64,000 nt of DNA from Candidatus Merdicola faecigallinarum (GTDB taxonomy: Bacteria > Bacillota > Clostridia > TANB77 > CAG-508), in contig DVNH01000006.1 in NCBI GenBank assembly GCA_018714565.1, forward strand, positions 1,277-65,276. Reading direction: 5' to 3'. This document shows, in pieces, positions 7,609 through 57,460 of this stretch. The position numbers and the translations under genes are program-made. Below the pieces are notes generated by a model. The model had not been told where the DNA came from, searched no databases, and saw nothing but the letters and a program-made list of their open reading frames with translations. Position 1 is the stretch's first letter; the number at the start of each line of letters is the position of its first letter.

Positions 7609-7711
7609 AAGATAAAAGAACAATAAAGCAAATATAATTTATTAGAACTATTTTCTTTATCTCGAACTAATATTTAAAATAAAAAACAGACTAATATTAG
7701 GAGTGAAGAAA

Positions 7712-8062
7712 ATGATTATTAAAAGAGGTGACATGTTTTACGCGGATTTAAGCCCAGTGATTGGATCAGAACAAGGAGGAATAAGACCAGTTCTTATTAT
7801 TCAAAATGATATGGGAAATAAATATAGCCCAACAGTAATAGCTGCAGCAATTACCTCGCAAAAATCAAAAAATAAATTGCCAACGCATATTGAAATAAAT
7901 TCAGAAAATAGTGGACTAAAGTCAGATTCTATTGTTTTAACAGAACAAATTCGTACGATTGATAAAAGTAGATTAAGAGAGAAAATAGGGCATATAGACG
8001 ATACTTCTGTTATTCATAAAATTAATAATGCATTAGGGGTTAGCTTTGGATTAGAAGAATAA
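7712..8062 (+). CDS. mazF: MazF/EndoA (PemK family) mRNA interferase toxin
   Basis: MIIKRGDMFYADLSPVIGSEQGGIRPVLIIQNDMGNKYSPTVIAAAITS... is nearly collinear with Bacillus EndoA. The start is set to the ATG at 7712, 8 nt after AGGAG; the track starts at an upstream GTG. Confidence 0.92.
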   Translation: MIIKRGDMFYADLSPVIGSEQGGIRPVLIIQNDMGNKYSPTVIAAAITSQKSKNKLPTHIEINSENSGLKSDSIVLTEQIRTIDKSRLREKIGHIDDTSVIHKINNALGVSFGLEE

Positions 8063-14769: not shown

Positions 14770-14889
14770 AAAGCGTCACCTCTTTATATTATATGGAATA
14801 AAAAAAATAAAGTTATTGAAAAGAAAATAATCATAATTTAAAAATGCCTACATATACATTAGTATAACTTGTACAAAGGAGGATTGGAT

Positions 14890-17514
14890 ATGTGGCATAC
14901 GAAAAGTGCAGAAGAGGTAATAAAAGAACTAAAGAGCAATTGGAATTTAGGATTAAGTAAGGAAAATGTGGATATAAGAAGGCAGGAATTTGGTTTCAAT
15001 AAATTAAAAGAAAAACCAAAAGAAAAATTATGGGTAAAGTTTCTAAAGCAGTTCCAAGATTTTATGATTTTGATTTTAATTATTGCCTCCATTATTTCGG
15101 CAGTTGTTAGTTACATAGAAGGAAGTCACGATTACTTTGATTCGATTATTATTATTGCAATTGTAGTATTAAATGCAATTATGGGATTAATTCAAGAAGC
15201 AAAAGCAGAAAAGTCTTTAGAGGCATTGAAAAAAATGTCTGCTCCAGTAGCAAAAGTAAGAAGAAATGGAAATATAGAAATAATAAAAGGGGAGGAAATT
15301 GTTCCGGGAGATATTATTTTATTAGAGGCAGGAAACTATGTACCGGCGGATTGTAGACTTTTAAAAACTTGTGAATTAAAGATAGAAGAATCTAGTTTAA
15401 CAGGAGAAACGAATGGCGTATCAAAAGATGCGAATGCAATTTTAGGAGAGAAATGTTCAATTGGAGATATGATAAATACTGCATTTGGAAGCACGATTGT
15501 AATAGAAGGACATGGAGAAGGAATTGTAACAGAAATTGGAATGGAAACGAAGGTTGGAAGAATTGCTAATATGATCATGACAAATGAAACTCCACAAACT
15601 CCAATTCAAAAAAAGTTAGAAGAAGTTGGAAAGATATTAGGATGGGCATGCTTAGGAATCTGCATTTTTATATTCTTTATAGGTCTTTTAAAACAGATTA
15701 CTCCACTTGAAATGTTTATGACTTCAGTGGGACTTGCTGTAGCTGCTATTCCAGAAGGACTTCCAGCAATTGTGACAATTATGCTGTCCATTGGTGTAAC
15801 AAAGATGGCAAAGAAAAATGCAATTATTCGAAGACTTCCGGCAGTAGAAACACTAGGTAGCAGTCAAATTATTTGTTCAGATAAAACAGGTACATTAACG
15901 CAAAACAAAATGAAAGTACGAAAGATAACTGGAGATGAAAAAAAAGTATTAGAATTTGCAACCCTATGTACGAATTGTGAAGTAAATAAAGAAAATAAAA
16001 TAAATGGAGAAGCAACAGAAGTTTCAATTGCTCGTGCAGCTTTAGAAAAAGGAATACAAAGAAAAGAATTAGAAAAGAATTATCCAAGGGTGGAAGAGAT
16101 TCCTTTTGATTCAAAGAGAAAATTAATGACAACAATTCATCAATTGCCAAATGGGATGTTTCGTATTATTACAAAAGGAGCTCCCGATATCTTGCTAGAT
16201 TCTTGCCAAAAATATGAATATAATAAAAACATTTTTACACTAACAGAAAGTGAAAAAGAAAAGATAAAAAAGCAAAATATAAAAATGGCGGAAGAAGCGC
16301 TTAGAGTGTTAGCAGTTGCTTATCGAGATATAAAAGAAATACCAACAAAAATAGAAGCAAAGGGAATCGAAAGAGAATTGACATTTATAGGGTTAATTGG
16401 AATGATGGATCCGCCAAGAGAAGGGGTAAAAGAAGCAGTTGCAACTTGTAGAAGAGCAGGGATTAAAACAGTAATGATTACAGGGGATCATATTGTAACA
16501 GCAAAGGCAATTGCAAAAGAACTAGGAATTTTAAAAGAAAATGATATGGCAATATCAGGAAAAGAATTGGATCAAATGGATCAAAAATCATTGGAAAGAA
16601 ATATTGTGAAATATTCTGTATTTGCTAGAGTATCACCAGAACATAAAGTTAGAATTGTAACAGCATTTCAGAATATGGGAAAAGTAGTTGCAATGACAGG
16701 AGATGGGGTAAATGATGCTCCAGCACTAAAAAAGGCAGACATTGGAATTGCAATGGGAATTACCGGCACAGATGTAGCGAAAAATGCTGCTGACATGATA
16801 TTAACAGATGATAATTTTACTACAATTGTAGAAGCGGTAAAGCAAGGAAGAAATATTTTTGCTAATATAAAAAAAGCAATACATTTTTTAATTGCAACCA
16901 ATATAGGAGAAATTGTAACAATTTTAGTAGGCTTATTATTAGGAATGAAAACACCATTACTTGCAATTCAGTTATTATGGATTAATTTAGTTACAGATTC
17001 TTTACCTGCAATTGCATTAGGACTAGAACCATTTCAAAAGGAGCTTATGAATCATAAACCAAGAGATATAAAAGAAAGTGTTTTTGCAGATGGGTTATGG
17101 GGAAAAATTATATCGGAAGGAATGATGATAGGATTACTTACGATCATTACCTTTAGTATTGGAAATCATTTTTATGGAATAGAAGTAGCAAGAACAATGG
17201 CTTTTATTAGTTTAGGAATGATTGAATTAATTCATAGTTTTAATATAAAAAGTGAAGAATCCATTTTCAAAATTGGTATTTTTGAAAATAAATATTTATT
17301 GGGAGCATTTTTATTAGGAATGATTTTGCAAATAGGAATTTTATGGATTCCATCTTTTGCGAATATATTTAAACTAGTTCCTTTAAATCAAGTACAATGG
17401 ATATATACGATTCTTATTTCTTGTATGCCAGTTGTAATTATAGAGATACAGAAAAAAGTAAATGAACTTAGATTTGGAAAAGTAGTCTATGAATATAATA
17501 GAAGTAATCTTTAA
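14890..17514 (+). CDS. Cation-transporting P-type ATPase (Ca2+-ATPase-like, P2 type)
   Basis: It has the CSDKTGTLT phosphorylation motif, TGES, MITGD, TGDGVNDAPALKKADIG and 10 TM-like segments. The start is set to the ATG at 14890, after AAGGAGG. Confidence 0.92.
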   Translation: MWHTKSAEEVIKELKSNWNLGLSKENVDIRRQEFGFNKLKEKPKEKLWVKFLKQFQDFMILILIIASIISAVVSYIEGSHDYFDSIIIIAIVVLNAIMGLIQEAKAEKSLEALKKMSAPVAKVRRNGNIEIIKGEEIVPGDIILLEAGNYVPADCRLLKTCELKIEESSLTGETNGVSKDANAILGEKCSIGDMINTAFGSTIVIEGHGEGIVTEIGMETKVGRIANMIMTNETPQTPIQKKLEEVGKILGWACLGICIFIFFIGLLKQITPLEMFMTSVGLAVAAIPEGLPAIVTIMLSIGVTKMAKKNAIIRRLPAVETLGSSQIICSDKTGTLTQNKMKVRKITGDEKKVLEFATLCTNCEVNKENKINGEATEVSIARAALEKGIQRKELEKNYPRVEEIPFDSKRKLMTTIHQLPNGMFRIITKGAPDILLDSCQKYEYNKNIFTLTESEKEKIKKQNIKMAEEALRVLAVAYRDIKEIPTKIEAKGIERELTFIGLIGMMDPPREGVKEAVATCRRAGIKTVMITGDHIVTAKAIAKELGILKENDMAISGKELDQMDQKSLERNIVKYSVFARVSPEHKVRIVTAFQNMGKVVAMTGDGVNDAPALKKADIGIAMGITGTDVAKNAADMILTDDNFTTIVEAVKQGRNIFANIKKAIHFLIATNIGEIVTILVGLLLGMKTPLLAIQLLWINLVTDSLPAIALGLEPFQKELMNHKPRDIKESVFADGLWGKIISEGMMIGLLTIITFSIGNHFYGIEVARTMAFISLGMIELIHSFNIKSEESIFKIGIFENKYLLGAFLLGMILQIGILWIPSFANIFKLVPLNQVQWIYTILISCMPVVIIEIQKKVNELRFGKVVYEYNRSNL

Positions 17515-27077: not shown

Positions 27078-28367
27078 TTATTTCTTTTTTGGTTCTATTT
27101 TTTCAAGACCACCCATATATGGTCTTAGTACCTCTGGAATTGTAATACTACCATCTGGATTATAGTGATTTTCTAGTAAAGCAATTAACATACGAGGTGG
27201 GGCAACTACGGTATTATTTAAGGTATGGGCAAAATAGTTTCCTTTCTCCCCTTTGATGCGAATTCCTAAACGTCTTGCTTGTGCGTCTGTTAAGTTAGAA
27301 CAGCTACCAACTTCAAAATATTTTTGTTGTCTTGGACTCCAAGCTTCTACGTCCACACTTTTGGCTTTTAAATCTGCTAAATCTCCACTACAACATTCCA
27401 AAGTACGAACAGGAATATCCATACTTCTAAATAATTCCACTGTGTAAGACCACATTTTCTCGTACCAATTCCAACTATCTTCAGGTTCACAAACAACAAT
27501 CATTTCTTGTTTTTCAAATTGATGAATTCGGTAAACACCACGTTCTTCGATACCATGAGCACCTTTTTCTTTTCGGAAACAAGGAGAATAAGAAGTCATT
27601 GTATATGGCATGTCCTCTTTTTTTAGAATTTGATCTTTAAACTTTCCAATCATAGAATGTTCACTAGTACCAATTAGATATAGATCTTCTCCTTCAATTT
27701 TATACATCATAGCATCCATTTCTTCAAAACTCATAACTCCAGTTACAACATCTGAACGAATCATGTAAGGAGGGATACAATAAGTAAAACCTTTTTGAAT
27801 CATAAAATCTCTAGCATAAGTTAAAACAGCAGAATGAAGTCTTGCAATATTTCCAGTTAAATAGTAAAAACCATTTCCTGCAACTCTTCTTGCACTGTCT
27901 AAATCAAGACCATCAAGAGATTCCATAATTTCACCATGATAAGGAATTTCATAATCTGGAACAACTGGATCTCCATATTTTTTTACTTCCACATTTTTAC
28001 TATCATCTTCTCCAATAGGAACAGATTCATGCATGATATTAGGTATTTTCATCATACGTATTTTAATTTCATTTGCATATTGCTTTTCTAATTCTTCATT
28101 CTGAATTAATTCTTCATTTAATTTCTGAACTTCTAATTTTTTTTCTTCTGCTTCTTCTTTTTTTCCATCTTTCATAAGCATTCCAATTTCAGAACTTAAT
28201 GTTTTTCTTTTATTTCTTAGTTCATCTCCATGAAGTTGCGCGCTACGATTTTTCTTATCTAGTTCGATCACTTCATCCACTAGAATAAGTTTGTGATCTT
28301 GAAATTTTTTTCGAATGTTTTCTTTTACCATTTCAGGATTTTCTCTTATTAATTTAATATCGATCAT
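27078..28367 (-). CDS. serS: Seryl-tRNA synthetase
   Basis: 429 aa with an N-terminal coiled-coil arm and class II motifs (FRKEKGAHG, GSCSNLTDAQARR). It is preceded by a Ser T-box leader. Confidence 0.95.
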   Translation of the reverse strand: MIDIKLIRENPEMVKENIRKKFQDHKLILVDEVIELDKKNRSAQLHGDELRNKRKTLSSEIGMLMKDGKKEEAEEKKLEVQKLNEELIQNEELEKQYANEIKIRMMKIPNIMHESVPIGEDDSKNVEVKKYGDPVVPDYEIPYHGEIMESLDGLDLDSARRVAGNGFYYLTGNIARLHSAVLTYARDFMIQKGFTYCIPPYMIRSDVVTGVMSFEEMDAMMYKIEGEDLYLIGTSEHSMIGKFKDQILKKEDMPYTMTSYSPCFRKEKGAHGIEERGVYRIHQFEKQEMIVVCEPEDSWNWYEKMWSYTVELFRSMDIPVRTLECCSGDLADLKAKSVDVEAWSPRQQKYFEVGSCSNLTDAQARRLGIRIKGEKGNYFAHTLNNTVVAPPRMLIALLENHYNPDGSITIPEVLRPYMGGLEKIEPKKK

Positions 28368-44608: not shown

Positions 44609-45844
44609 TTAAAATTTAATTATTTCAGAATAAGTTTGAATTGCATAAGAATCTGTCATGCCGGAAATATAAGTAATAATTGCTTTATAGTAATCTTCTT
44701 TTTTATCCATATGATATAATATTCTATTTTTTAAATGTTCTCTTGTTTCATTTAAATCCCAATAATTTGAAATCCAATCAGAAAATTCCAAAATTAAATT
44801 TGGGTAATATTTTTCTAATTTTTTTAACTCTTTTGGTGTTTCTTTTCCCGCATATGCATTTTTTAGTAATTGGTAGATATTAGATAATATCAAAGAGAAA
44901 TATTCGATGGATGGAGATAATTTTGGATTTCTATAAATATTTTTGTAATTAAAATCTTTTAAATTCTGAATCGTTTGGAATGTTTTTTCAGAGAAACTTA
45001 AACCATTTTCCAAATTAGAGTTTACACATACGTCATAAATTAAATCACTAATAATGTTTGCATTATTTATTTTTTTCGATTTTGGATATTCAAGTAAATC
45101 ATATAGTTCATTTAGATTTTGATCTAGAATTCCAGTAGAAATAGCATCTTTAATATCTCTACCTAAATAAGCGATTTTATCTGAGATTTTTACAACACAT
45201 CCTTCCCAGGTATAAGGTGCATATTGATTAGGTGTTTGATAATCAGAAGTAAGATCAATAAAATTACTTCTAGGTTTTAAACCATTTTCATCAATTTCAC
45301 CACAGTGAGAAATAATACCGTCACGTACTGCATAAGTAAGATTTAAATTTTGCTTACAATTTTCAGTGTCTTCTAATAATTCTACATCATCTACGATGGT
45401 AAGCCCATTTCGCTCATGCCAAAAGGATTCACCGAAATCTTCTTTAGCAAATTGATTTAAGATTTTTTCACCTTGATGACCAAAGGGGCTATGACCAATA
45501 TCATGTGCAATGGAAATAGCTCTTGTTAAATTAGTATTTAAACCAAGAGCTTTTGCAATTGTGTAACTTGTAGCTTCTACATTATATACATGTTCAAGTC
45601 TAGTACAAATATGGTCATTTTTTGGAGAAAAGAATACTTGCGTTTTATGTTTTAAACGTCGAAAAGCATTACAATAAATGATACGATTATAATCCCTTTC
45701 GAAATCAGAACGAATATCATGAGGTCTTTTGTAGATTGGATGAATTCTAGAAAGCATATTTTGCCAGTATGGGTGTGTTTCATTTGCACTTACTTGATTA
45801 AATAATTCTTTCATATAATTTATATTTCTTGTATAAAAATACAA
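44609..45844 (-). CDS. dGTP triphosphohydrolase-like HD-domain protein
   Basis: It has FERDYNRIIYCNAFRRLKHKTQVF and AHDIGHSPFGHQGE motifs. The start is uncertain: either the TTG at 45844, which abuts the SD, or the ATG at 45814. Confidence 0.85.
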   Translation of the reverse strand: MYFYTRNINYMKELFNQVSANETHPYWQNMLSRIHPIYKRPHDIRSDFERDYNRIIYCNAFRRLKHKTQVFFSPKNDHICTRLEHVYNVEATSYTIAKALGLNTNLTRAISIAHDIGHSPFGHQGEKILNQFAKEDFGESFWHERNGLTIVDDVELLEDTENCKQNLNLTYAVRDGIISHCGEIDENGLKPRSNFIDLTSDYQTPNQYAPYTWEGCVVKISDKIAYLGRDIKDAISTGILDQNLNELYDLLEYPKSKKINNANIISDLIYDVCVNSNLENGLSFSEKTFQTIQNLKDFNYKNIYRNPKLSPSIEYFSLILSNIYQLLKNAYAGKETPKELKKLEKYYPNLILEFSDWISNYWDLNETREHLKNRILYHMDKKEDYYKAIITYISGMTDSYAIQTYSEIIKF

Positions 45845-46022
45845 GCTCCTTTCTTTTTTCTTTTATTGTAAATGGAAAAAAAGAAGAAAGCAAGAAAAAA
45901 ATAAAAAAACGTAAAAGGAAAAGAAAAACAAAGAAAAATTATAAAAGAAAGAAAAAATATTATAAAAAACTTAAAATAATTAAAATGTAAACTAAAATAA
46001 AACAAAATGAAAAGATAAAAAT

Positions 46023-46050
46023 TTGAAAAATTTTCCTAATATGGTATAAT
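46023..46050 (+). promoter_or_regulatory. Near-consensus sigma-A promoter with an extended -10
   Basis: TTGAAA (46023-46028), a 16-nt spacer, then TGgTATAAT (46042-46050). No coding start follows it for ~600 nt. Confidence 0.7.
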
Positions 46051-46056
46051 AACAAT

Positions 46057-46621
46057 GGTGGTGCATTATTCTAGTCATATTATCTACTATGAGGGTGGGG
46101 CTAAAAATCCACTAAAGGGCACATCGATGAAGTTTCTTGTTTATGCGCGAAATGCCAGTTTTGTGTGTATTCAGGGAGTAAAGAAATTAGGGGAATATAT
46201 AATGGCATATATAGGATCCCTCATTTCGCGGAGACTTAAAAGTAGGACTTTTAAGTATAACCTATGTTGAGTGCCAAGACACAAAATACATAGTGTAGCC
46301 TGTCTTGAGTGATTATATTGGGATTAATTTTTGTGAATTGATTATTTTGGCCAAAATATTTAATTCTTTTGGATTATGAAATTATGATTGCAAAAAAGAC
46401 TAATAGTAGGGTGTAATGTGAAAAGGAAAACTTCTAGAATGTTTGCTTAAACGATAAGCATGGAAGTTTAAGGATTAAGGTACGGATTTAAGTGGCGATC
46501 TGGTGTCTACAATTTTGTAGATGTTCTTTTTAAATGGAAACAGCCAAGCAGTAATGTAGGGTAGAGAATAGAGAAATTCAACCAGACCTAAACCGTAAAA
46601 TTTACTTAAACTTTTACCACC
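46057..46621 (+). ncRNA. Candidate large structured non-coding RNA (~565 nt; OLE-like by size and gene context, unverified)
   Basis: There is no SD-preceded ORF here. The region is GC-richer than its flanks. Hand-found helices: 46091-95/46218-22; 46146-53/46223-30; 46234-43/46247-56 (10 bp); 46275-81/46301-07; 46446-52/46466-72; 46506-11/46516-21. There is also a 16-nt palindrome at 46343-58 and a possible closing pair GGTGGT 46057-62 / ACCACC 46616-21. Confidence 0.5.
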
Positions 46622-46660
46622 TATAAAAATAAAAATGAAGAATATAATCAATAATAGAAT

Positions 46661-47263
46661 ATGAATAAAAGCTTAAGGAGAGAAATAAAATATATGGCAA
46701 AGGGAGAAAAAGAAAAGAAAAAAAGTAATGCAGATGTAAAATGGATTGTATCTGTTTTTATTTCTACTTTTTTACTATCCATTCTTTTTTCATTTATTTC
46801 AACAAATGCAATTTCAAATTTGGGATTAATACCAGCAATTTTAATATTAGTTTTAGTTATTTTAGTAGGAATTGGATTCGATATTGTAGGGGTTGCGGTT
46901 ACGGTAGCAAATGAGCACGAATTTCACGCAAAAGCAACAAAGAAAGTAAAAGGATCAAAAACTTCTATTCAGTTGATTCGTAACTCAGCGAAAGTTGCCA
47001 ATATTTGTGCTGATGTTATTGGAGATATTTGTGGAGTATTAAGTGGTGCAATTTCTGCATTAGTTACAATGAAAATCACAGAAACATTTGGACTAAATTT
47101 TGACTTACAATTTATTATAAGCGCGGTGGTTGCATCTTTAACCGTAAGTGGAAAGGCTTTAGGAAAAGGCGTTGCTCAAAAGAATTCAACTAAAATTGTT
47201 CATGTAGTAGGTGGAGTGCTAAACAAATTCGAACATAACAAAGAAGAAAAATCGAAAAAATAA
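46661..47263 (+). CDS. Small four-TM membrane protein with a basic loop (OapA-like by architecture and position; family not verified)
   Basis: 200 aa, or 189 aa if it starts at the ATG at 46694 after AAGGAG. It has four hydrophobic helices and an internally repeated G.DI.GV motif (GFDIVGVAV / IGDICGVLSGA). The central loop is Lys-rich (HAKATKKVKGSKTS). Confidence 0.7.
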   Translation: MNKSLRREIKYMAKGEKEKKKSNADVKWIVSVFISTFLLSILFSFISTNAISNLGLIPAILILVLVILVGIGFDIVGVAVTVANEHEFHAKATKKVKGSKTSIQLIRNSAKVANICADVIGDICGVLSGAISALVTMKITETFGLNFDLQFIISAVVASLTVSGKALGKGVAQKNSTKIVHVVGGVLNKFEHNKEEKSKK

Positions 47264-47381
47264 TAAAACGTGAGAAAAAGAAAGAAAAAGAAAGATAATA
47301 TCTTAAATTAAAAAAAACAAACCGAAAATGATTAAAAATGGAGCTTGCTTTTGAGTGTGAGCTCTTTATAATAGAATTATA

Positions 47382-47404
47382 GGTCAAAGAAAGTCAAAGT
47401 CAAA
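47382..47404 (+). promoter_or_regulatory. CtsR operator (direct heptad repeats) overlapping the ctsR promoter region
   Basis: GGTCAAAgaaAGTCAAAGTCAAA sits immediately downstream of TATAAT (47367-47372). It matches the known (A/G)GTCAAA-NAN-(A/G)GTCAAA CtsR box. Confidence 0.88.
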
Positions 47405-47431
47405 ACGTAAAAAAGAAAAGAGGCGAAGCTA

Positions 47432-47881
47432 ATGAGAATGTCAGATATTATAGAAGATTTTATCAAGGATTTATTAAAAGAAGAGGATGAGCTAGAAATA
47501 CAAAGAAATGAATTAGCAGAGCATTTTAACTGTGTTCCTTCTCAAATTAATTACGTAATTGCAACAAGATTTAAACCATCACAGGGATATTATGTAGAAA
47601 GTAAAAGAGGTGGAGGTGGTCACATTAAAATAAAAAAGATTAATGTAACCAAAAGTAATTTATTAATGCATACAATTACAAGTATAGGAAACAGTATTAC
47701 AGCAGGAGAAGTGGATATTTTTATTAGCAATTTTTTATCTTATGGCATAATAGACGAAACACAAGCGAAACTATTAAAAGTTGCAACAAGTGATAATGTA
47801 CTTACAATTCCACAAGAGATAAAAGATGAAGTCAGAGCAAATATTTTTAAAAATATGCTACTTAATTTAGTAGAGGATTAA
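47432..47881 (+). CDS. ctsR: Class III stress gene repressor CtsR
   Basis: 149 aa with SDIIE.FIK, the HTH region CVPSQINYVIATRF and the glycine loop KRGGGGHIKI. Confidence 0.95.
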   Translation: MRMSDIIEDFIKDLLKEEDELEIQRNELAEHFNCVPSQINYVIATRFKPSQGYYVESKRGGGGHIKIKKINVTKSNLLMHTITSIGNSITAGEVDIFISNFLSYGIIDETQAKLLKVATSDNVLTIPQEIKDEVRANIFKNMLLNLVED

Positions 47882-47899
47882 AATAAGGAGGTAATTATT

Positions 47900-48460
47900 A
47901 TGAAATGTCAAAATTGCGGAAAAAATGAAGCAAATGTAAGATATACACAAATTGTAAATGGAAATAAAATAGAAATGAACTTATGTGAGAATTGTGCGAG
48001 AGAATTAGGAATTGATCGTTCTTTGCATTTTGATATGGCAATGGATATTCCAAGTTTTTTTGGTAACTTTTTTCATGAATATGATGATTTTAATTTACTA
48101 CCAAGTTTTCAAACAAAAGTGCAAGAAAGCTGTGATCACTGCGGTATGACATATAACGATTTTGTAAACACAGGAAGACTAGGATGCATTCATTGTTATG
48201 ATATTTTTTCTGATCGATTAGATCCAATTTTAAAAAATATTCAAGGAAGTAATAGACATATAGGAAGAAAAGGAAAAGTATTAGATAGTAGTATCGTAGA
48301 AAATATGGAAAAACAAAAAGAAAAAGTAGAGAAGCAAAATAAAGAAGTAAATAAAATAGAAACATTAAAACGAGAATTAAAACAAGCAATTAAAGAAGAA
48401 AGATATGAAGATGCAGCTAAATTAAGAGATGAAATTAATGGATTAGAAAATAACAAATAA
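47900..48460 (+). CDS. mcsA: McsA (zinc-finger / UVR-domain activator of McsB)
   Basis: 186 aa with N-terminal CQNCG...CENC pairs, a second CDHCG...CIHC pair and a C-terminal UVR motif (ERYEDAAKLRDEI). Confidence 0.9.
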   Translation: MKCQNCGKNEANVRYTQIVNGNKIEMNLCENCARELGIDRSLHFDMAMDIPSFFGNFFHEYDDFNLLPSFQTKVQESCDHCGMTYNDFVNTGRLGCIHCYDIFSDRLDPILKNIQGSNRHIGRKGKVLDSSIVENMEKQKEKVEKQNKEVNKIETLKRELKQAIKEERYEDAAKLRDEINGLENNK

Positions 48461-48475
48461 AAGGAGGCAAAAAGA

Positions 48476-49495
48476 ATGTTAAATTGGTATTTGCAAAGCG
48501 GAAAAGAATCAGATGTAGTAATTAGTTCTAGAGTAAGGCTAGCTAGAAATTTAGCAGAATTTCCTTTTGAAACAAAATGTTCTAAGGAAGATCTAAGAAA
48601 AATTGAACAGAAAATAGAGGAAGCCACTCCTCAAATTGGTTATCATTTAAAATATTTAAGATTACGTGATATGGATGATATTACGAAAATGAGTTTAGTA
48701 GAAAAAAGGTTAATTAGTCCAGAATTTGTATCGGATAAAAGTGAAAACAGAGGAATCCTATTAAATGATGATGAAAATATTTCTATTATGATAAATGAAG
48801 AAGATCATTTAAGAATACAAGTATTTGCTTCTGGATTAGAAATCGAGAATTTATTAAATCTAGCAATAGAAATTGATGAAAAAATTGGAGAAATGTTACC
48901 ATATGCTTATAGTGAAAAATATGGTTTTTTAACAAGCTGTCCAACCGATGCAGGAACGGCAATGAGAGCTTCCGTTATGGTACATTTACCAGCACTTACT
49001 CAAACAGGAAATATTCGAAAATTATTAGAAGTTGTTAGTAATTTTGGTATGAATATAAGAGGAATTTATGGAGAAGGAAGTAAAGCAATTGGAAATATGT
49101 ATCAAATTTCGAATAAACAATCCTTAGGAATTTCAGAAAAAGAGATTATAAAAAATATCAAATTAGTAACGGATAAAATTATTGAACAAGAGCGTTTAGC
49201 AAGAAAATATTTAGGAAAAAACAGTATAGAATTAGAAGACTATGTATATAGAGAGTATGGAAAATTAATTAATTGCAGAAAAATTTCATGGGAAGAATGT
49301 AAAGAATTACTATCTGCAGTAAAATTAGGAACAGACTTAGGTGTTATTAGAGAACTTACAGATTTAAAAGTAAATAAAATCGATTTATACAGTAAACCTG
49401 CAAATTTACAAAAATATTTAGGGAAACAATATGATAGTTATGATAGAGATATTAAAAGAGCAGAAGTAATAAAACAGATTGTACAAGAAGTATAA
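48476..49495 (+). CDS. mcsB: Protein arginine kinase McsB
   Basis: 339 aa with a phosphagen-kinase-like domain (NEEDHLRIQ, SCPTDAGTAMRAS). It lies between mcsA and clpC. Confidence 0.93.
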   Translation: MLNWYLQSGKESDVVISSRVRLARNLAEFPFETKCSKEDLRKIEQKIEEATPQIGYHLKYLRLRDMDDITKMSLVEKRLISPEFVSDKSENRGILLNDDENISIMINEEDHLRIQVFASGLEIENLLNLAIEIDEKIGEMLPYAYSEKYGFLTSCPTDAGTAMRASVMVHLPALTQTGNIRKLLEVVSNFGMNIRGIYGEGSKAIGNMYQISNKQSLGISEKEIIKNIKLVTDKIIEQERLARKYLGKNSIELEDYVYREYGKLINCRKISWEECKELLSAVKLGTDLGVIRELTDLKVNKIDLYSKPANLQKYLGKQYDSYDRDIKRAEVIKQIVQEV

Positions 49496-49515
49496 AAGAA
49501 AGGAAGGGAGAGAAT

Positions 49516-51984
49516 ATGACATATAAATTTACTAATAGTGCGCAAAAGGTAATTCAAATTGCAAGTGAAATTGCAACAGAACTTGGACATAGTTATATTG
49601 GAACAGAACATATATTATATGGATTAGCAAGAGAAGATAGTGGCGTTGCAAGTAAAGTATTAGAAAAACAAGAGATTACTTGTGAAAATATATTAGAAGA
49701 AATTGAAAGCTTAGTAGGGAGAGATGAACCTGCTATGGATCCAACAGTGGGATTTACACCAAGAACCAAAAGAGTAATTGAAAATGCATTCCGTGAAGCA
49801 AGAAAATTAGGAGTAGAATATATTGGAACAGAACACCTATTAATCGGAATTATGAGAGAAGCAGATAGCATTGCAGTAAGAATTATGCTTGACTTAGGAG
49901 TAAACCCACAAAAATTATATAATGAATTAGTAAAAGTAATTAATGATGAAGAAGAGTTTGGAACGAATACAAGAAGTTCCTCTGAAAAGAACAAAGGAAG
50001 CTATAATTCAACACCAACATTAAATCAGTTTGGAACTGATTTAACGAAACAAGCAGAAGCTGGAAAATTGGACCCAATTATCGGAAGAAAAACAGAAATT
50101 GAAAGGGTAATCCAAATCTTATCAAGAAGAACAAAAAACAATCCTTGTCTAATTGGTGAACCTGGTGTCGGAAAAACTGCAGTAGTAGAAGGGTTAGCAG
50201 AAAAAATCGTGTCAGGAGATGTTCCAGAAGTATTAAAGAATAAAAGAGTCGTAACGGTAGATATCTCAAGTATGGTAGCAGGAGCAAAATATAGAGGAGA
50301 TTTTGAAGAAAGAATTAAAAAATCTTTGAATGAGGTAAAAAAAGCAGGAGATGTAATACTATTTATTGACGAGATTCATACGATTGTAGGAGCAGGATCC
50401 GCAGAAGGGGCAATTGATGCGGCAAATATTTTAAAACCAATGCTAGCAAGAGGAGAAATTCAATTAATTGGTGCAACTACTTTAAATGAATACCGAAAAT
50501 ATATCGAGAAAGATGCTGCTTTAGAAAGACGTTTTAGTACGGTTATGGTGCAAGAGCCAAAAGTAGAAGATACAATTCAAATCTTAACAGGAATTCGTGA
50601 TAAATATGAGGCACATCATAATGTAAAGATTCCAGATGAAACGATCAAAGCTGCAGTAGAATTATCAGTAAGATATATTAATGATCGTTTTTTACCAGAT
50701 AAAGCCATTGATCTAATTGATGAAGCTGCTTCTAAAGTTCGTTTAAAAACATATTCAGAACCAGATGGAATAAAAGAACTACAAGATAAAATAAGAGATA
50801 TAGATCAAGAAAAAGAAGATGCAATTAAGGTTCAAAAATTTGAAAAAGCTGCAAAATTAAGAGATGAAGTAAAGGCTTTAAAAGAAAAATTAGAAAAAGA
50901 AAACGAAAAATGGAATCAGAAAAAATCAAAATCAATTATTACCTTAACAGAAGAAGATATTGCAGAAGTAATTGCTAGTTGGACAGGAATTCCAGTTGCT
51001 AAAATTACACAAGATGAAAATAAAAAACTAAGAGATTTGGAGAAAAACTTACACAAAAGAGTAATTGGACAAAACGAGGCAGTGGAGGCTGTAAGCAAAG
51101 CAATCAGAAGAGGAAGAGTTGGACTAAAAGATCCGAAAAGACCAATTGGTTCTTTCTTATTCTTAGGACCAACAGGAGTAGGTAAAACAGAATTAGCAAA
51201 AGCAATTTCAGAAAGTCTTTTTGGTGATGAAAATGCAATGATACGAGTAGATATGTCGGAATATATGGAATCACATTCCGTATCGAAATTAATAGGGTCG
51301 CCTCCAGGATATGTAGGATTCGATGATGGTGGTCAACTAACAGAAAAAATAAGAAGAAAACCATATGCTGTGATACTATTTGATGAAATTGAAAAAGCAC
51401 ATCCTGATGTAATGAATATGTTATTACAAATTTTGGAAGACGGTAGATTAACAGATAATCAAGGTCGTACCGTTAATTTTAAAAATACAGTAATTATTAT
51501 GACATCTAATGTAGGAGCAAGACTAATTACAGATAAAAATACATTAGGATTTTCAAGCCAAGAAGCAGATAAAAAAGAAGAAGCAGATTATGAAAAAATT
51601 AAAAAAGACGTGATGGCAGAATTGAAGAAACAATTTAGACCTGAATTTCTAAATCGTATTGATGAAATCATCGTATTCCATAAACTAACCGATTCTGAAA
51701 TTGAGCAAATTATTGATATTATGTTAAAAGAAGTAGCAATAAGACTAAAAGCACAAAATATTTCAATTTCTTTTGACAAAAGTGTAAAAGAATTAATTGC
51801 AAAGAAGGGTGTAGACAAAAATTTTGGAGCAAGACCATTAAGAAGATCAATTCAAAATTTAGTAGAAGATAAAATTGCAGAAGAAATTTTAGATGGAAAT
51901 CTAAAAGCAGGGGATGAAGCAAAAGTAACAGCAAAAGAAGATGAAATTTTAATAAAAACCAAAAAACTAGAAGCAAAGGAATAA
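49516..51984 (+). CDS. clpC: ATP-dependent Clp protease ATP-binding subunit ClpC
   Basis: 822 aa with Clp_N repeats, two AAA+ modules (GEPGVGKT, GPTGVGKT) and a UVR linker (FEKAAKLRDE). Confidence 0.96.
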   Translation: MTYKFTNSAQKVIQIASEIATELGHSYIGTEHILYGLAREDSGVASKVLEKQEITCENILEEIESLVGRDEPAMDPTVGFTPRTKRVIENAFREARKLGVEYIGTEHLLIGIMREADSIAVRIMLDLGVNPQKLYNELVKVINDEEEFGTNTRSSSEKNKGSYNSTPTLNQFGTDLTKQAEAGKLDPIIGRKTEIERVIQILSRRTKNNPCLIGEPGVGKTAVVEGLAEKIVSGDVPEVLKNKRVVTVDISSMVAGAKYRGDFEERIKKSLNEVKKAGDVILFIDEIHTIVGAGSAEGAIDAANILKPMLARGEIQLIGATTLNEYRKYIEKDAALERRFSTVMVQEPKVEDTIQILTGIRDKYEAHHNVKIPDETIKAAVELSVRYINDRFLPDKAIDLIDEAASKVRLKTYSEPDGIKELQDKIRDIDQEKEDAIKVQKFEKAAKLRDEVKALKEKLEKENEKWNQKKSKSIITLTEEDIAEVIASWTGIPVAKITQDENKKLRDLEKNLHKRVIGQNEAVEAVSKAIRRGRVGLKDPKRPIGSFLFLGPTGVGKTELAKAISESLFGDENAMIRVDMSEYMESHSVSKLIGSPPGYVGFDDGGQLTEKIRRKPYAVILFDEIEKAHPDVMNMLLQILEDGRLTDNQGRTVNFKNTVIIMTSNVGARLITDKNTLGFSSQEADKKEEADYEKIKKDVMAELKKQFRPEFLNRIDEIIVFHKLTDSEIEQIIDIMLKEVAIRLKAQNISISFDKSVKELIAKKGVDKNFGARPLRRSIQNLVEDKIAEEILDGNLKAGDEAKVTAKEDEILIKTKKLEAKE

Positions 51985-52556: not shown

Positions 52557-53414
52557 CTAAATAGGATTTACATGAATAATGGTATGATAAATGTTTTCTA
52601 GTTTATTAATATCTTTTTCTAGATGATCTGCTAATTCATGACTTTTAAAGGTAGACATATTACCATCTACATAAATAGTAAGAGTTACAACATATTGATA
52701 GCCAACTGGAGTAGAAGAAATAGGATCTACTTTTTGGATTTCTTTATATCCATGAGCTAAATCATAAATTAATTTAGTTGTATTTTCATCTAAAGAAATG
52801 TCCATTAAAATATTATAGCTCTCAATAAAAATTTTGACCCCGGTAAAGGCAATCCATAAAGAAATTCCGATACCAACTATACCATCAATCCAGTAAATAC
52901 CAAATAAACTAGCTAAAATAGAAATAAGTGTAAAAGTGGTGACAATACAATCATTACGATGATCTTTCATATTGGCTTTTACTAAAATGTTATTATATTT
53001 TTTTACAATAGAATGTGAGTATAGGTATAAAGTAAGTTTTATTATAATTGTAATAATGCAAACAAGGACTAAGAACCAAGAAAAAATAAATTCATTTCTA
53101 TTAATTAAACTGGAAACAGAATCAATTAATAATTTAATAGAAACTAATATCATAGATAAGCTAATTAAAAAGGAAAAAATATATTCCGCTTTTCCATGTC
53201 CAAAGTTATGTGTTTTATCACTTGGTTCACTTGATATTTTATTTCCAATAAAAGTCATAAGAGAAGCAAATATATCGCTTGCACTATTGGCTGCATCTGC
53301 GATCATAGATTGACTATGAGATAAAAATCCAATGATTGCTTTTATAATTAACAAAAAAATATTTCCGATGATTCCAAATAAGCTAACTCTTTTTGCACTT
53401 TGATATCGATCCAT
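52557..53414 (-). CDS. Cation diffusion facilitator (CDF) family metal efflux transporter
   Basis: 285 aa with six TM segments, the HSQSMIADAANSASD signature in TM2 and a C-terminal cytoplasmic domain. Confidence 0.88.
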   Translation of the reverse strand: MDRYQSAKRVSLFGIIGNIFLLIIKAIIGFLSHSQSMIADAANSASDIFASLMTFIGNKISSEPSDKTHNFGHGKAEYIFSFLISLSMILVSIKLLIDSVSSLINRNEFIFSWFLVLVCIITIIIKLTLYLYSHSIVKKYNNILVKANMKDHRNDCIVTTFTLISILASLFGIYWIDGIVGIGISLWIAFTGVKIFIESYNILMDISLDENTTKLIYDLAHGYKEIQKVDPISSTPVGYQYVVTLTIYVDGNMSTFKSHELADHLEKDINKLENIYHTIIHVNPI

Positions 53415-55977: not shown

Positions 55978-56895
55978 TTATTTTCCTTCTTTTTTATCTT
56001 TTAACATTTCAGCAGCAGCTCCTAAACTACTTAAAGCTGTAGTTGCGTCAAAAGGAATAAATACTTTATTAGCATCTCCTTTAGCAACTTCTTCTAAGGC
56101 TTCTAATGATTTTAATTGAACAAGCTTTTCATCAGGATCTGCTTTCTTAATTGCTTCATAAACCATTTGTACTTCTTTTGCTTTGGCCTGAGCAATTGCT
56201 TCAATTGCTTCTGCTTCACCCGCAGCTCTTCTAATTTGTGCTTCACGATCTGCTTCTGCTTCTAAAATAGCAGCTTGTTTTTTACCTTCAGCAAGAGTGA
56301 TTGCAGATTGTCTTTCACCTTCTGCTTGAAGGATTAAAGCTCTTTTATTTCTTTCAGCATTCATTTGTTTCTCCATTGCATCACGGATATCAGCAGGAGG
56401 ATTAATGTCTTTTATTTCAACACGATCAATTTTACATCCCCATTTATCTGTTGCTTCATCTAAGATAACTCTTAATCTTTGATTAATCGCATCTCTAGAA
56501 CTAAATGTTTCATCTAAATCCATCTTACCAACAATATCACGAATAGTAGTAATTGCTAAATATTCAATACCTTTCTTTAAAGATTGAATTTCATATACAG
56601 CCTTTGCAGGATCAGTAATTTGATAGAATACAACAGTATCAATTGTAATTGTTACATTATCTTTTGTAATAACTCCTTGTGGTGGAATATCCATTGTTTG
56701 TTGCTTTAAACTTACAACACTACGAACATGATCAAAAAAAGGGATAATGATTGTAAGTCCAGCATCTGCAACTTTATGAAATTTACCAAGTCTTTCAATA
56801 ATATATACTTCAGATTGTTTTACTACTTTAATTGTTTTATATGCAATAATAACAATAATTGCAAGCATAATAATTAAAAAGATAACTCCTCCCAT
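55978..56895 (-). CDS. SPFH/band-7 (stomatin-like) membrane protein
   Basis: 305 aa with an N-terminal TM helix, an SPFH domain (IIERLGKF...TKDNV) and an Ala/Glu-rich coiled coil. Confidence 0.9.
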   Translation of the reverse strand: MGGVIFLIIMLAIIVIIAYKTIKVVKQSEVYIIERLGKFHKVADAGLTIIIPFFDHVRSVVSLKQQTMDIPPQGVITKDNVTITIDTVVFYQITDPAKAVYEIQSLKKGIEYLAITTIRDIVGKMDLDETFSSRDAINQRLRVILDEATDKWGCKIDRVEIKDINPPADIRDAMEKQMNAERNKRALILQAEGERQSAITLAEGKKQAAILEAEADREAQIRRAAGEAEAIEAIAQAKAKEVQMVYEAIKKADPDEKLVQLKSLEALEEVAKGDANKVFIPFDATTALSSLGAAAEMLKDKKEGK

Positions 56896-56916
56896 TTTTA
56901 ATAATCCTCCTTTAAA

Positions 56917-57381
56917 TTAATCTAATTTATTTTCTATTATACTATTTTGATTTTTTTCAATAAGTTTTACGCAAGCTTTTACGCCATCTAAGGAAGAAAT
57001 TTCTACCTCTGATCCTTTTGCAATAATTTCATCTCCTAATGTTTTAGCAGACCAAACTTCTCCGTCTACTTTTATTTGTCCAGTACCTGTAATGGAATTA
57101 ATTTCTTCCAATACAATTGCTTTTTTTCCAATAATAGAATAAGCATTGGTTGGAAGTGTTTTTTGTTTGTTAATATATTTATCTACTAGTGGTTTTGTAA
57201 AATATAATAGTAAACAAGAGGATGCAATAAATACAATAAGCTGTATGATAATGCTATCTGTAATTAAACTTGTAACAGTAGCAAATAAAGCACCTATTGC
57301 TAACCAAAAAACTAAAAAACCTGTTGTAATTATTTCCAAAATAAAAAGTACTCCAGAAATAATTAACCAGACTTGCCACAT
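56917..57381 (-). CDS. NfeD family membrane protein (partner of the SPFH protein)
   Basis: Start set to the ATG at 57381, 9 nt after AGGAGG. It has three TM helices plus a C-terminal OB-fold-like domain (GTGQIKVDGEVWSAK). It is in an operon with the SPFH gene. Confidence 0.85.
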   Translation of the reverse strand: MWQVWLIISGVLFILEIITTGFLVFWLAIGALFATVTSLITDSIIIQLIVFIASSCLLLYFTKPLVDKYINKQKTLPTNAYSIIGKKAIVLEEINSITGTGQIKVDGEVWSAKTLGDEIIAKGSEVEISSLDGVKACVKLIEKNQNSIIENKLD

Positions 57382-57460
57382 AGATACATTCCTCCTTATA
57401 CACAATCTACTAATATTATACTACAAAATCTGGAAAAAGTAAAGAGAAGCTTAGAAAAAA

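Follow-up and report, generated by a model that had tools for sequence, protein, structure and literature searches.

The window analyzed here, a stretch of 64,000 nucleotides (nt) from contig DVNH01000006.1 of Candidatus Merdicola faecigallinarum, almost certainly carries an OLE RNA gene followed directly by oapA, the two forming a unit with its own sigma-A promoter and with a ctsR operon, most likely under separate control, as a neighbor. OLE stands for ornate, large, and extremophilic, and designates a large folded bacterial RNA found at the cell membrane, the chemistry of which is unknown. This RNA has been known since 2006, and the more than 2,800 Bacillota genomes in which it has been catalogued include those of reduced-genome gut clades, where it takes a shortened form. 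The pair of genes at this locus has already been described, and the copy is an ordinary one rather than a new find. An original prediction, made from the DNA letters, had placed here a candidate large ornate RNA with an OLE/OapA-like layout, a proposal that is upheld by a full-length match to Rfam family RF01071, by a covarying fold, and by the homology of the downstream protein to OapA together with its DxxxD motif.

A scan of the whole window against the 4227 families of Rfam 15 returned two matches, the OLE RNA and a T-box leader elsewhere. The OLE model RF01071, whose gathering score is 50 bits, matched positions 46042–46636 of the plus strand over its entire length (model positions 1–616 of 616) with 357.6 bits and an E-value of 1.9e-101. 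A permissive rescan of 45800–47400 at E ≤ 1 added just a chance fragment of the Plasmodium RNase P model, lying within the oapA open reading frame (ORF). ROOL, GOLLD, raiA, and HEARO, which had been proposed along with OLE as covariance models to be run on this region, gave no match in the same interval even at E ≤ 1, so that OLE alone matches among the five. Like OLE, these four are large, highly structured bacterial noncoding RNAs of unknown or partly known function but, unlike OLE, they have no oapA-like gene linked to them.

The fold was examined in close relatives of the locus. By using the 200-amino acid (aa) downstream protein as query and one genome per species, we recovered 80 loci with protein identities of 63–78%. 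Their record titles name gut or rumen Clostridia, Clostridium sp. (among them Clostridium sp. CAG:440), Clostridiaceae, Lachnospiraceae, Eubacteriales, and Erysipelotrichaceae metagenome-assembled genomes (MAGs), or an uncultured bacterium. These titles point to an anaerobic or extremophilic Bacillota host, as do the genes of the window itself, which encodes CtsR/McsB/ClpC, a PASTA-domain penicillin-binding protein, and a serS preceded by a T-box. A homolog of the RNA was detected by nhmmer directly upstream of the oapA homolog in 78 of the 80 loci, the other two having too little upstream sequence; the RNA and oapA are kept together in every relative examined, with varying flanking genes. We aligned 75 full-length RNAs (alignment A1) and projected the Rfam consensus structure onto them via the window row. 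The resulting structure, completed with helix P1, comprises 153 pairs, and was compared with controls in which the 3' partners were slid by 1–3 columns and with 500 shuffles. Standard pairs occupy 89.5% of the cells, versus 36–50% in the slid controls, 78 of the 153 pairs show double changes affecting both sides, and the 500 shuffles all fall short on each of the five measures. The covariation among relatives that the original prediction had proposed to look for is therefore found, and it supports the OLE fold. About 230 columns are invariant in these 75 sequences, which are close relatives, and the conserved blocks match the upper-case positions of the Rfam consensus. In the OLE family, roughly one position in four falls in such a nearly invariant block.

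Because the structure line of Rfam leaves the 5' 53 positions unpaired, the long-range helices of this part were sought from their description in the literature, and the names P1, P2, P3.1, and P3 are our assignments by match to that description (PMC12265935). Jointly, these four helices are 90.7% paired, versus 32–48% in the slid controls, and 15 of their 27 pairs show double changes. P1 (46057–62 with 46616–21), which closes the RNA, is 100% paired and covaries, with an exchange between GC and AU at two pairs. P2 (46069–74 with 46434–39) is invariant, P3.1 (46075–82 with 46414–21) covaries, and all seven pairs of P3 (46084–90 with 46403–09) do so as well.

The ORF that follows the RNA (46661–47263, plus strand) encodes 200 aa when read from its first ATG. 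Translation probably starts instead from the ATG at 46694, 13 nt after a GGAG at 46677–80, which would give a protein of 189 aa; many oapA homologs encode 176–185 aa, which fits the shorter start. A large protein search returned 3192 homologs of the 200-aa protein, for which Pfam and NCBIfam gave nothing at default thresholds; a match to LolE in a sequence search of the PDB was rejected as a chance one. We also gathered at least 120 diverse OLE loci through the conserved OLE 5' motif, including those of Lederbergia lenta, Aeribacillus pallidus, Virgibacillus, Alkaliphilus transvaalensis, Clostridium tepidum, and Caloranaerobacter. Among the 120 listed, nearly all loci with enough downstream sequence encode, about 600–700 nt after the motif and on the same strand, a homolog of the window protein detected by tblastn with 31–50% identity and E-values of 1e-20 to 1e-43. 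The DxxxD motif, a distinctive feature of OapA (PMC11332333, Fernando and Breaker 2024), is present in all 91 OLE-linked proteins aligned, and reads D118-V-I-G-D122 in the window copy; residues D74, D118, D122, K165, and K169 are invariant in this set.

Other properties of the protein agree with this assignment. Hydropathy delineates four hydrophobic segments (residues ~27–48, 55–83, 112–136, and 147–165), the N-terminus, the central loop, and the C-terminus are rich in lysine (the loop, residues 84–112, holds seven Lys/Arg), and a DIxGV motif is repeated at D74 and D122, much as the original prediction had described a small protein with four transmembrane helices, an internal duplication, and a Lys-rich loop. 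The AlphaFold2 model (predicted local distance difference test [pLDDT] 72.7) is helical throughout, and the four segments are not resolved by the model alone. Its top Foldseek match is the archaeal CNNM protein MtCorB (7m1t_B, probability 0.97), a weak one (E-value 0.23, TM score 0.39), and PF01595 (CNNM) is the commonest subthreshold Pfam match, obtained for 36 of 37 homologs with a best E-value of 3e-5. OapA is described as distantly related to CNNM/MpfA (PMC11332333). The window protein likewise appears to bear a distant resemblance, in sequence and fold, to the membrane domain of the CNNM/CorB/MpfA Mg2+ transporters (PF01595; 7M1T, 7M1U) but is not a member of that family: it scores below the Pfam threshold (10.6 vs. 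28.4 bits), has four helices rather than three, carries DxxxD, and is devoid of CBS or CorC domains. It resembles OapA in its position directly after OLE, its four transmembrane helices, its DxxxD motif, and the conserved lysines on its presumed cytoplasmic face, and nothing of note differs when it is compared with OapA through the OLE-linked ORFs of Bacilli and Clostridia. Judged by its sequence and position, the downstream gene is a bona fide oapA.

The unit is headed by a sigma-A type promoter on the plus strand, with a −35 box TTGAAA (46023–28), a 16-nt spacer, and an extended −10 box TGgTATAAT (46042–50). This promoter, which the original prediction had described as near-consensus, scores higher than any other plus-strand candidate in the region (11 of 12 consensus positions, with the TG of the extended −10 present), and its position is conserved: in about 75 relatives, the spacing between the conserved start of the RNA, GATGGTGCA, and its −35 (TTGnAA) and −10 (TATAAT) boxes is constant. 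As the −10 box ends at 46050, transcription is predicted to start at about 46057, the first base of P1, and the likely body of the RNA extends over ~565 nt from the 5' strand to the 3' strand of P1 (46057–46621), within the interval matched by RF01071. In Halalkalibacterium halodurans, the OLE RNA is transcribed within a long polycistronic message (PMC12265935), whereas that of the window has a dedicated promoter directly at the 5' end of the RNA. The G+C content of the RNA body is 34.3%, compared with 15–16% in the immediate flanks and 30% in the window, in line with the contrast between the segment and its A-rich surroundings seen at the outset. The 178-nt spacer between the divergent upstream dGTPase-like gene and the OLE promoter (45845–46022, plus strand) has 16% G+C and 62% A, with runs such as AAAGAAGAAAGCAAGAAAAAAAATAAAAAAA. 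No credible coding sequence lies between the dGTPase-like gene (44609–45844, minus strand) and the ORF at 46661, as had been stated: only one of 75 homologous regions retains the 71-aa ORF at 46055–46270 intact, and the longest ORF of the homologous RNAs has a median of 33 codons, so that a conserved small ORF is excluded as the source of the conservation. An intrinsic terminator ahead of oapA had not been seen by eye either, and a terminator scan of 45800–47500 found none. The ~70 nt between P1 and the oapA start are unstructured and A/U-rich.

Within the closing helix, the RNA follows the order of parts known for OLE, all on the plus strand. The stem formed by P3 and P3.1 has been proposed to span the membrane (PMC12265935). 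The P4 hairpin (46094–46113) bears the A-rich loop GCUAAAAA (46100–07), which is invariant in all 75 sequences and is a dimerization contact in published cryo-electron microscopy models (PMC12265935). The joining region J4a/5, AAAGGGCACAUCGAUGAAG (46114–46132), is highly conserved and identical to the Rfam consensus; in H. halodurans, J4a/5 and J5/6 can refold into a kink-turn bound by OapC/YbxF (PMC9723947). P5/P5.1 (46133–78, loop GCCA at 46154–57) and P6/P6.1 (46183–227, loop AUGGCA at 46202–07) both covary and have invariant loop bases. The GCCA of P5.1 is complementary to the UGGC of P6.1 (46203–06), and these two loops kiss between the two RNAs of the OLE dimer (PMC12265935). P7 is a shortened 8-bp hairpin of 21 nt (46235–46255), in which 3 nt stand in place of 27 model positions and whose length is highly variable in relatives. 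P8 (46262–93) is followed by the long arm P9 (46302–400), the self-complementary loop of which, UGGCCA (46348–53), contains a nearly invariant GGCC (46349–52); P9–P9 kissing through this palindromic loop is part of the published dimer (PMC12265935). All the dimerization loops, namely the A-rich loop of P4, the complementary loops of P5.1 and P6.1, and the palindromic loop of P9, thus appear to be available, as far as the presence of their sequences can tell.

The 3' domain is made of a hairpin (46443–61), three long-range helices (46462–72/46605–15, 46481–85/46593–97, and 46499–504/46581–86, the last being P12.2), P13 (46506–21), P14 (46522–29/46563–70), and P14.1 (46543–62). P13 is reduced to a 6-bp stem, UCUACA-AUUU-UGUAGA, with seven model positions deleted, and P14.1 keeps its GNRA loop, GUAA (46551–54). 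The helices of this domain, numbered 16–22 in the tested structure, are 81–100% paired in the 75 sequences and mostly covary. In the close relatives, the tips of P7 (A1 columns 217–274) and P13 (columns 582–604) are insertion hotspots, the rest of the RNA being nearly invariant; insertions reach ~55 extra nt in P7 and ~20 in P13 (e.g., loci L024, L037, L064, L007, and L019).

Eight helices had been drawn by hand in the original prediction, and half of them stand. The hairpin at 46234–56 is P7, 46506–11/46516–21 is P13, and the 16-nt palindrome at 46343–58 is the tip of P9, all three in agreement with the Rfam structure, while the possible closing helix is P1. The other four (46091–95/46218–22, 46146–53/46223–30, 46275–81/46301–07, and 46446–52/46466–72) conflict with the consensus, and their covariation in the 75 relatives does not exceed that of shuffles; the last of them is broken in most of these sequences. 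P2, P3, and P3.1 were absent from the list. The pairing 46275–81/46301–07 joins the P8 loop CAAGAC to the 5' strand of P9, GUCUUG, and is kept in the clade of the window; the P8 loop repeats the sequence of the 3' strand of P9 (AAGAC, 46396–400) and could compete with it for GUCUUG. We considered this pairing as a candidate for the whole family and rejected it. Among 156 OLE RNAs with locatable anchors, diverse loci and close relatives taken together, a loop match exists in 57, at the P8-loop position of the window in 46, a distribution consistent with this clade. Individual inspection of 40 diverse OLE RNAs revealed no match at this position, which indicates that the pairing is not a family feature. 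Either the match is an alternative pairing confined to the clade or it is coincidental.

Compared with the full-length OLE type of H. halodurans, Clostridium acetobutylicum, and Clostridium botulinum, the window RNA is alike in its length of ~600 nt, its helix order from P1 to P14.1, and its invariant blocks (the CUAAAAA loop, AAAGGGCACAUCGAUGAAG, GGAUUAAGGU, and GACCUAA), and the locus is alike in its dimerization loops, the oapA gene immediately downstream, and its anaerobic Bacillota host. It differs in its score, as classic OLE RNAs obtain 495–554 bits with the same Rfam model and the close relatives of the window obtain 307–365, in its 21-nt P7, and in P13, where the Rfam alignment shows neither GNRA tetraloop nor single-base bulge and the loop is AUUU instead. 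Binding of OapB requires both of these P13 elements (PMC7936274), hence the primary OapB site is absent. This does not exclude the RNA from the OLE family because the site is likewise missing from the published variants 1 and 2 (PMC11332333). Variant 1 is characterized by Infernal scores of 310–390 bits for nontruncated RNAs with the authors' model, by shortened P7 to P9, and by the absence of an OapB site; it occurs most often in TANB77, an uncultured gut order whose members are mostly without OapB and OapC (PMC11332333). The window RNA has a score within this band, although with the Rfam 15 model rather than theirs, a short P7, and a P13 tip without the OapB-binding nucleotides, and its relatives are likewise uncultured gut Clostridia with A+T-rich genomes. 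By contrast, its P8 and P9 have no deletions and are not shorter than the Rfam consensus, so that its assignment to variant 1 is probable and not certain. Among the small nonoverlapping ORFs of the window, inspected by eye over their first 40 residues, there is no obvious candidate for oapB (KOW) or oapC (L7Ae).

Taken together, transcription would start at ~46057 from the conserved sigma-A promoter, the next ~565 nt would adopt the OLE fold from P1 to P14.1, and transcription would continue, with no terminator in between, into oapA, the product of which is predicted to be a four-helix membrane protein. By analogy with better studied species, the OLE RNA would be abundant, and two copies of it would dimerize by contacts at the A-rich loop of P4, between the kissing loops of P5.1 and P6.1, and at the palindromic loop of P9. 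A dimer of OapA would bind the RNA and tether it to the membrane, which the RNA possibly spans via P3, and the resulting particle would assist cells that face cold, short-chain alcohols, an excess of Mg2+, or poor carbon sources. The dimer, the OapA tether, and the stress roles derive from work on H. halodurans, C. acetobutylicum, and C. botulinum (PMC12265935, PMC11332333, PMC9723947, PMC7936274). As published for variant 1, the window OLE would probably work without OapB at the primary site.

Several points weigh against the identification of the locus as an OLE–oapA unit of this kind. The bit score is well below those of classic OLE RNAs, which marks the RNA as divergent, P13 lacks the primary OapB site, and pairing is poor in the upper part of P8 within the clade (62% of cells). 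Structurally, the protein matches CNNM weakly, in terms of both the scores and the quality of the model. Moreover, the ends, abundance, and processing of the transcript are predicted, and the account of how OLE works is taken from the literature.

The genes around the unit call for a separate comment. The gene order is that of a dGTPase-like HD protein on the minus strand, the RNA with ORF 46661–47263, ctsR (47432–47881), and genes for a McsA-like UVR protein, the McsB arginine kinase, and ClpC, where the classical flanks of full-length OLE are isoprenoid and DNA-repair genes. With a CtsR operator, ctsR-mcsA-mcsB-clpC (here 47432–51984) is the classic autoregulated class III heat-shock operon. 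We considered that OLE–oapA might be coupled to this operon, by read-through or shared control, thereby linking the OLE particle to CtsR/ClpC protein quality control. Such coupling, which we judge improbable, would be a physical and genetic link not described previously. It is suggested by the distance of 168 nt between oapA and ctsR on the same strand, by the lack of a strong terminator between them in the terminator scan, by the description of the OLE particle as a stress-response device in H. halodurans (PMC11332333, PMC12265935), and by the same gene order in six of the 80 relatives (L001, L012, L014, L016, L018, and L043), which are the nearest to the window by OLE nhmmer score. However, the other 74 have different genes downstream of oapA, mostly a short-chain dehydrogenase, with the dGTPase gene ~2 kb upstream in most cases, and none of the 120 diverse OLE loci listed has ctsR, mcsB, or clpC nearby within the stretch covered, which also bears out the remark of the original prediction that the neighborhood is atypical. 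Furthermore, ctsR is preceded on the plus strand by an exact CtsR operator, GGTCAAAGAAAGTCAAA (47382–98), 34 nt before the gene and the sole match in the window, and by a plausible promoter, TTGCTT-16-TATAAT (47345–72), just upstream of this operator. A 9-bp hairpin, GGAGCUUGC/GUGAGCUCU (47340–65), present in both the minimum free energy and the centroid folds and followed by UUUAUAAU (47340–47372 in all, plus strand), could be a weak terminator after oapA, although it overlaps the likely ctsR promoter and was unreported by the terminator scan. Given that the adjacency occurs in 6 of 80 relatives and that ctsR has its own operator, it looks incidental and is weak evidence for a functional link; the ctsR operon is most likely an independently regulated neighbor acquired in one sub-clade.

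Two other explanations concern the RNA itself. The structured region might be a mere cis-acting 5' leader of oapA, acting like a riboswitch or an attenuator, rather than a stand-alone RNA. It does lie on the same strand as oapA with no terminator between them, and the sole promoter is upstream of the RNA. We nevertheless hold this to be very unlikely, since the RNA is a full-length member of OLE, a ribonucleoprotein component with mutant phenotypes of its own (PMC9723947, PMC11332333), since neither the covarying fold nor the terminator scan contains a terminator/antiterminator element, and since the stretch of A/U-rich sequence that separates P1 from oapA is unstructured. As for a large ornate RNA of another class, known or new, which the original prediction had kept as an alternative, or a small protein-coding gene accounting for the conservation, the size of the region and its visible helices would by themselves be compatible with the former. 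This explanation has next to no probability left and is already refuted by the Rfam scans, in which OLE is the one matching class at the gathering threshold and at E ≤ 1, and by the ORF data given above. An OLE RNA with its oapA, transcribed as a unit of their own, is the reading that we retain.

As a discovery, the locus has little weight, the RNA class being well described and its shortened form already reported in gut clades. It is a clean, self-contained OLE–oapA unit, with its own conserved promoter, a predicted start at the first base of P1, and a P13 without OapB site. Compact OLE variants of this type could help to define the minimal functional OLE particle, and the adjacency to ctsR-clpC in one sub-clade is a minor lead for work on OLE as a stress-response device. 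Among the OLE-motif matches, four come from MAGs labeled Actinomycetota or Deltaproteobacteria (L134, L147, L150, and L182); three of them (L134, L150, and L182) have an oapA homolog downstream, and the contig of L147 is too short to tell. These non-Bacillota matches fit the published view of binning errors or horizontal transfer.

Genes for metal-ion homeostasis have been reported to cluster with OLE. The window contains a cation-diffusion facilitator gene (52557–53414, minus strand), a P-type cation ATPase gene (14869–17514, plus strand), and an SPFH/NfeD pair (55978–57405, minus strand), which lie 5–30 kb away and to which we attach no weight. The T-box leader found in the Rfam scan (RF00230, 28424–28640, minus strand) scores 101.2 bits against a gathering threshold of 93 and lies directly upstream of the seryl-tRNA synthetase gene (27078–28367, minus strand), as an ordinary leader that senses tRNA. 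The window also encodes a MazF/PemK-type toxin (7703–8062, plus strand; PF02452, E-value 2e-34).

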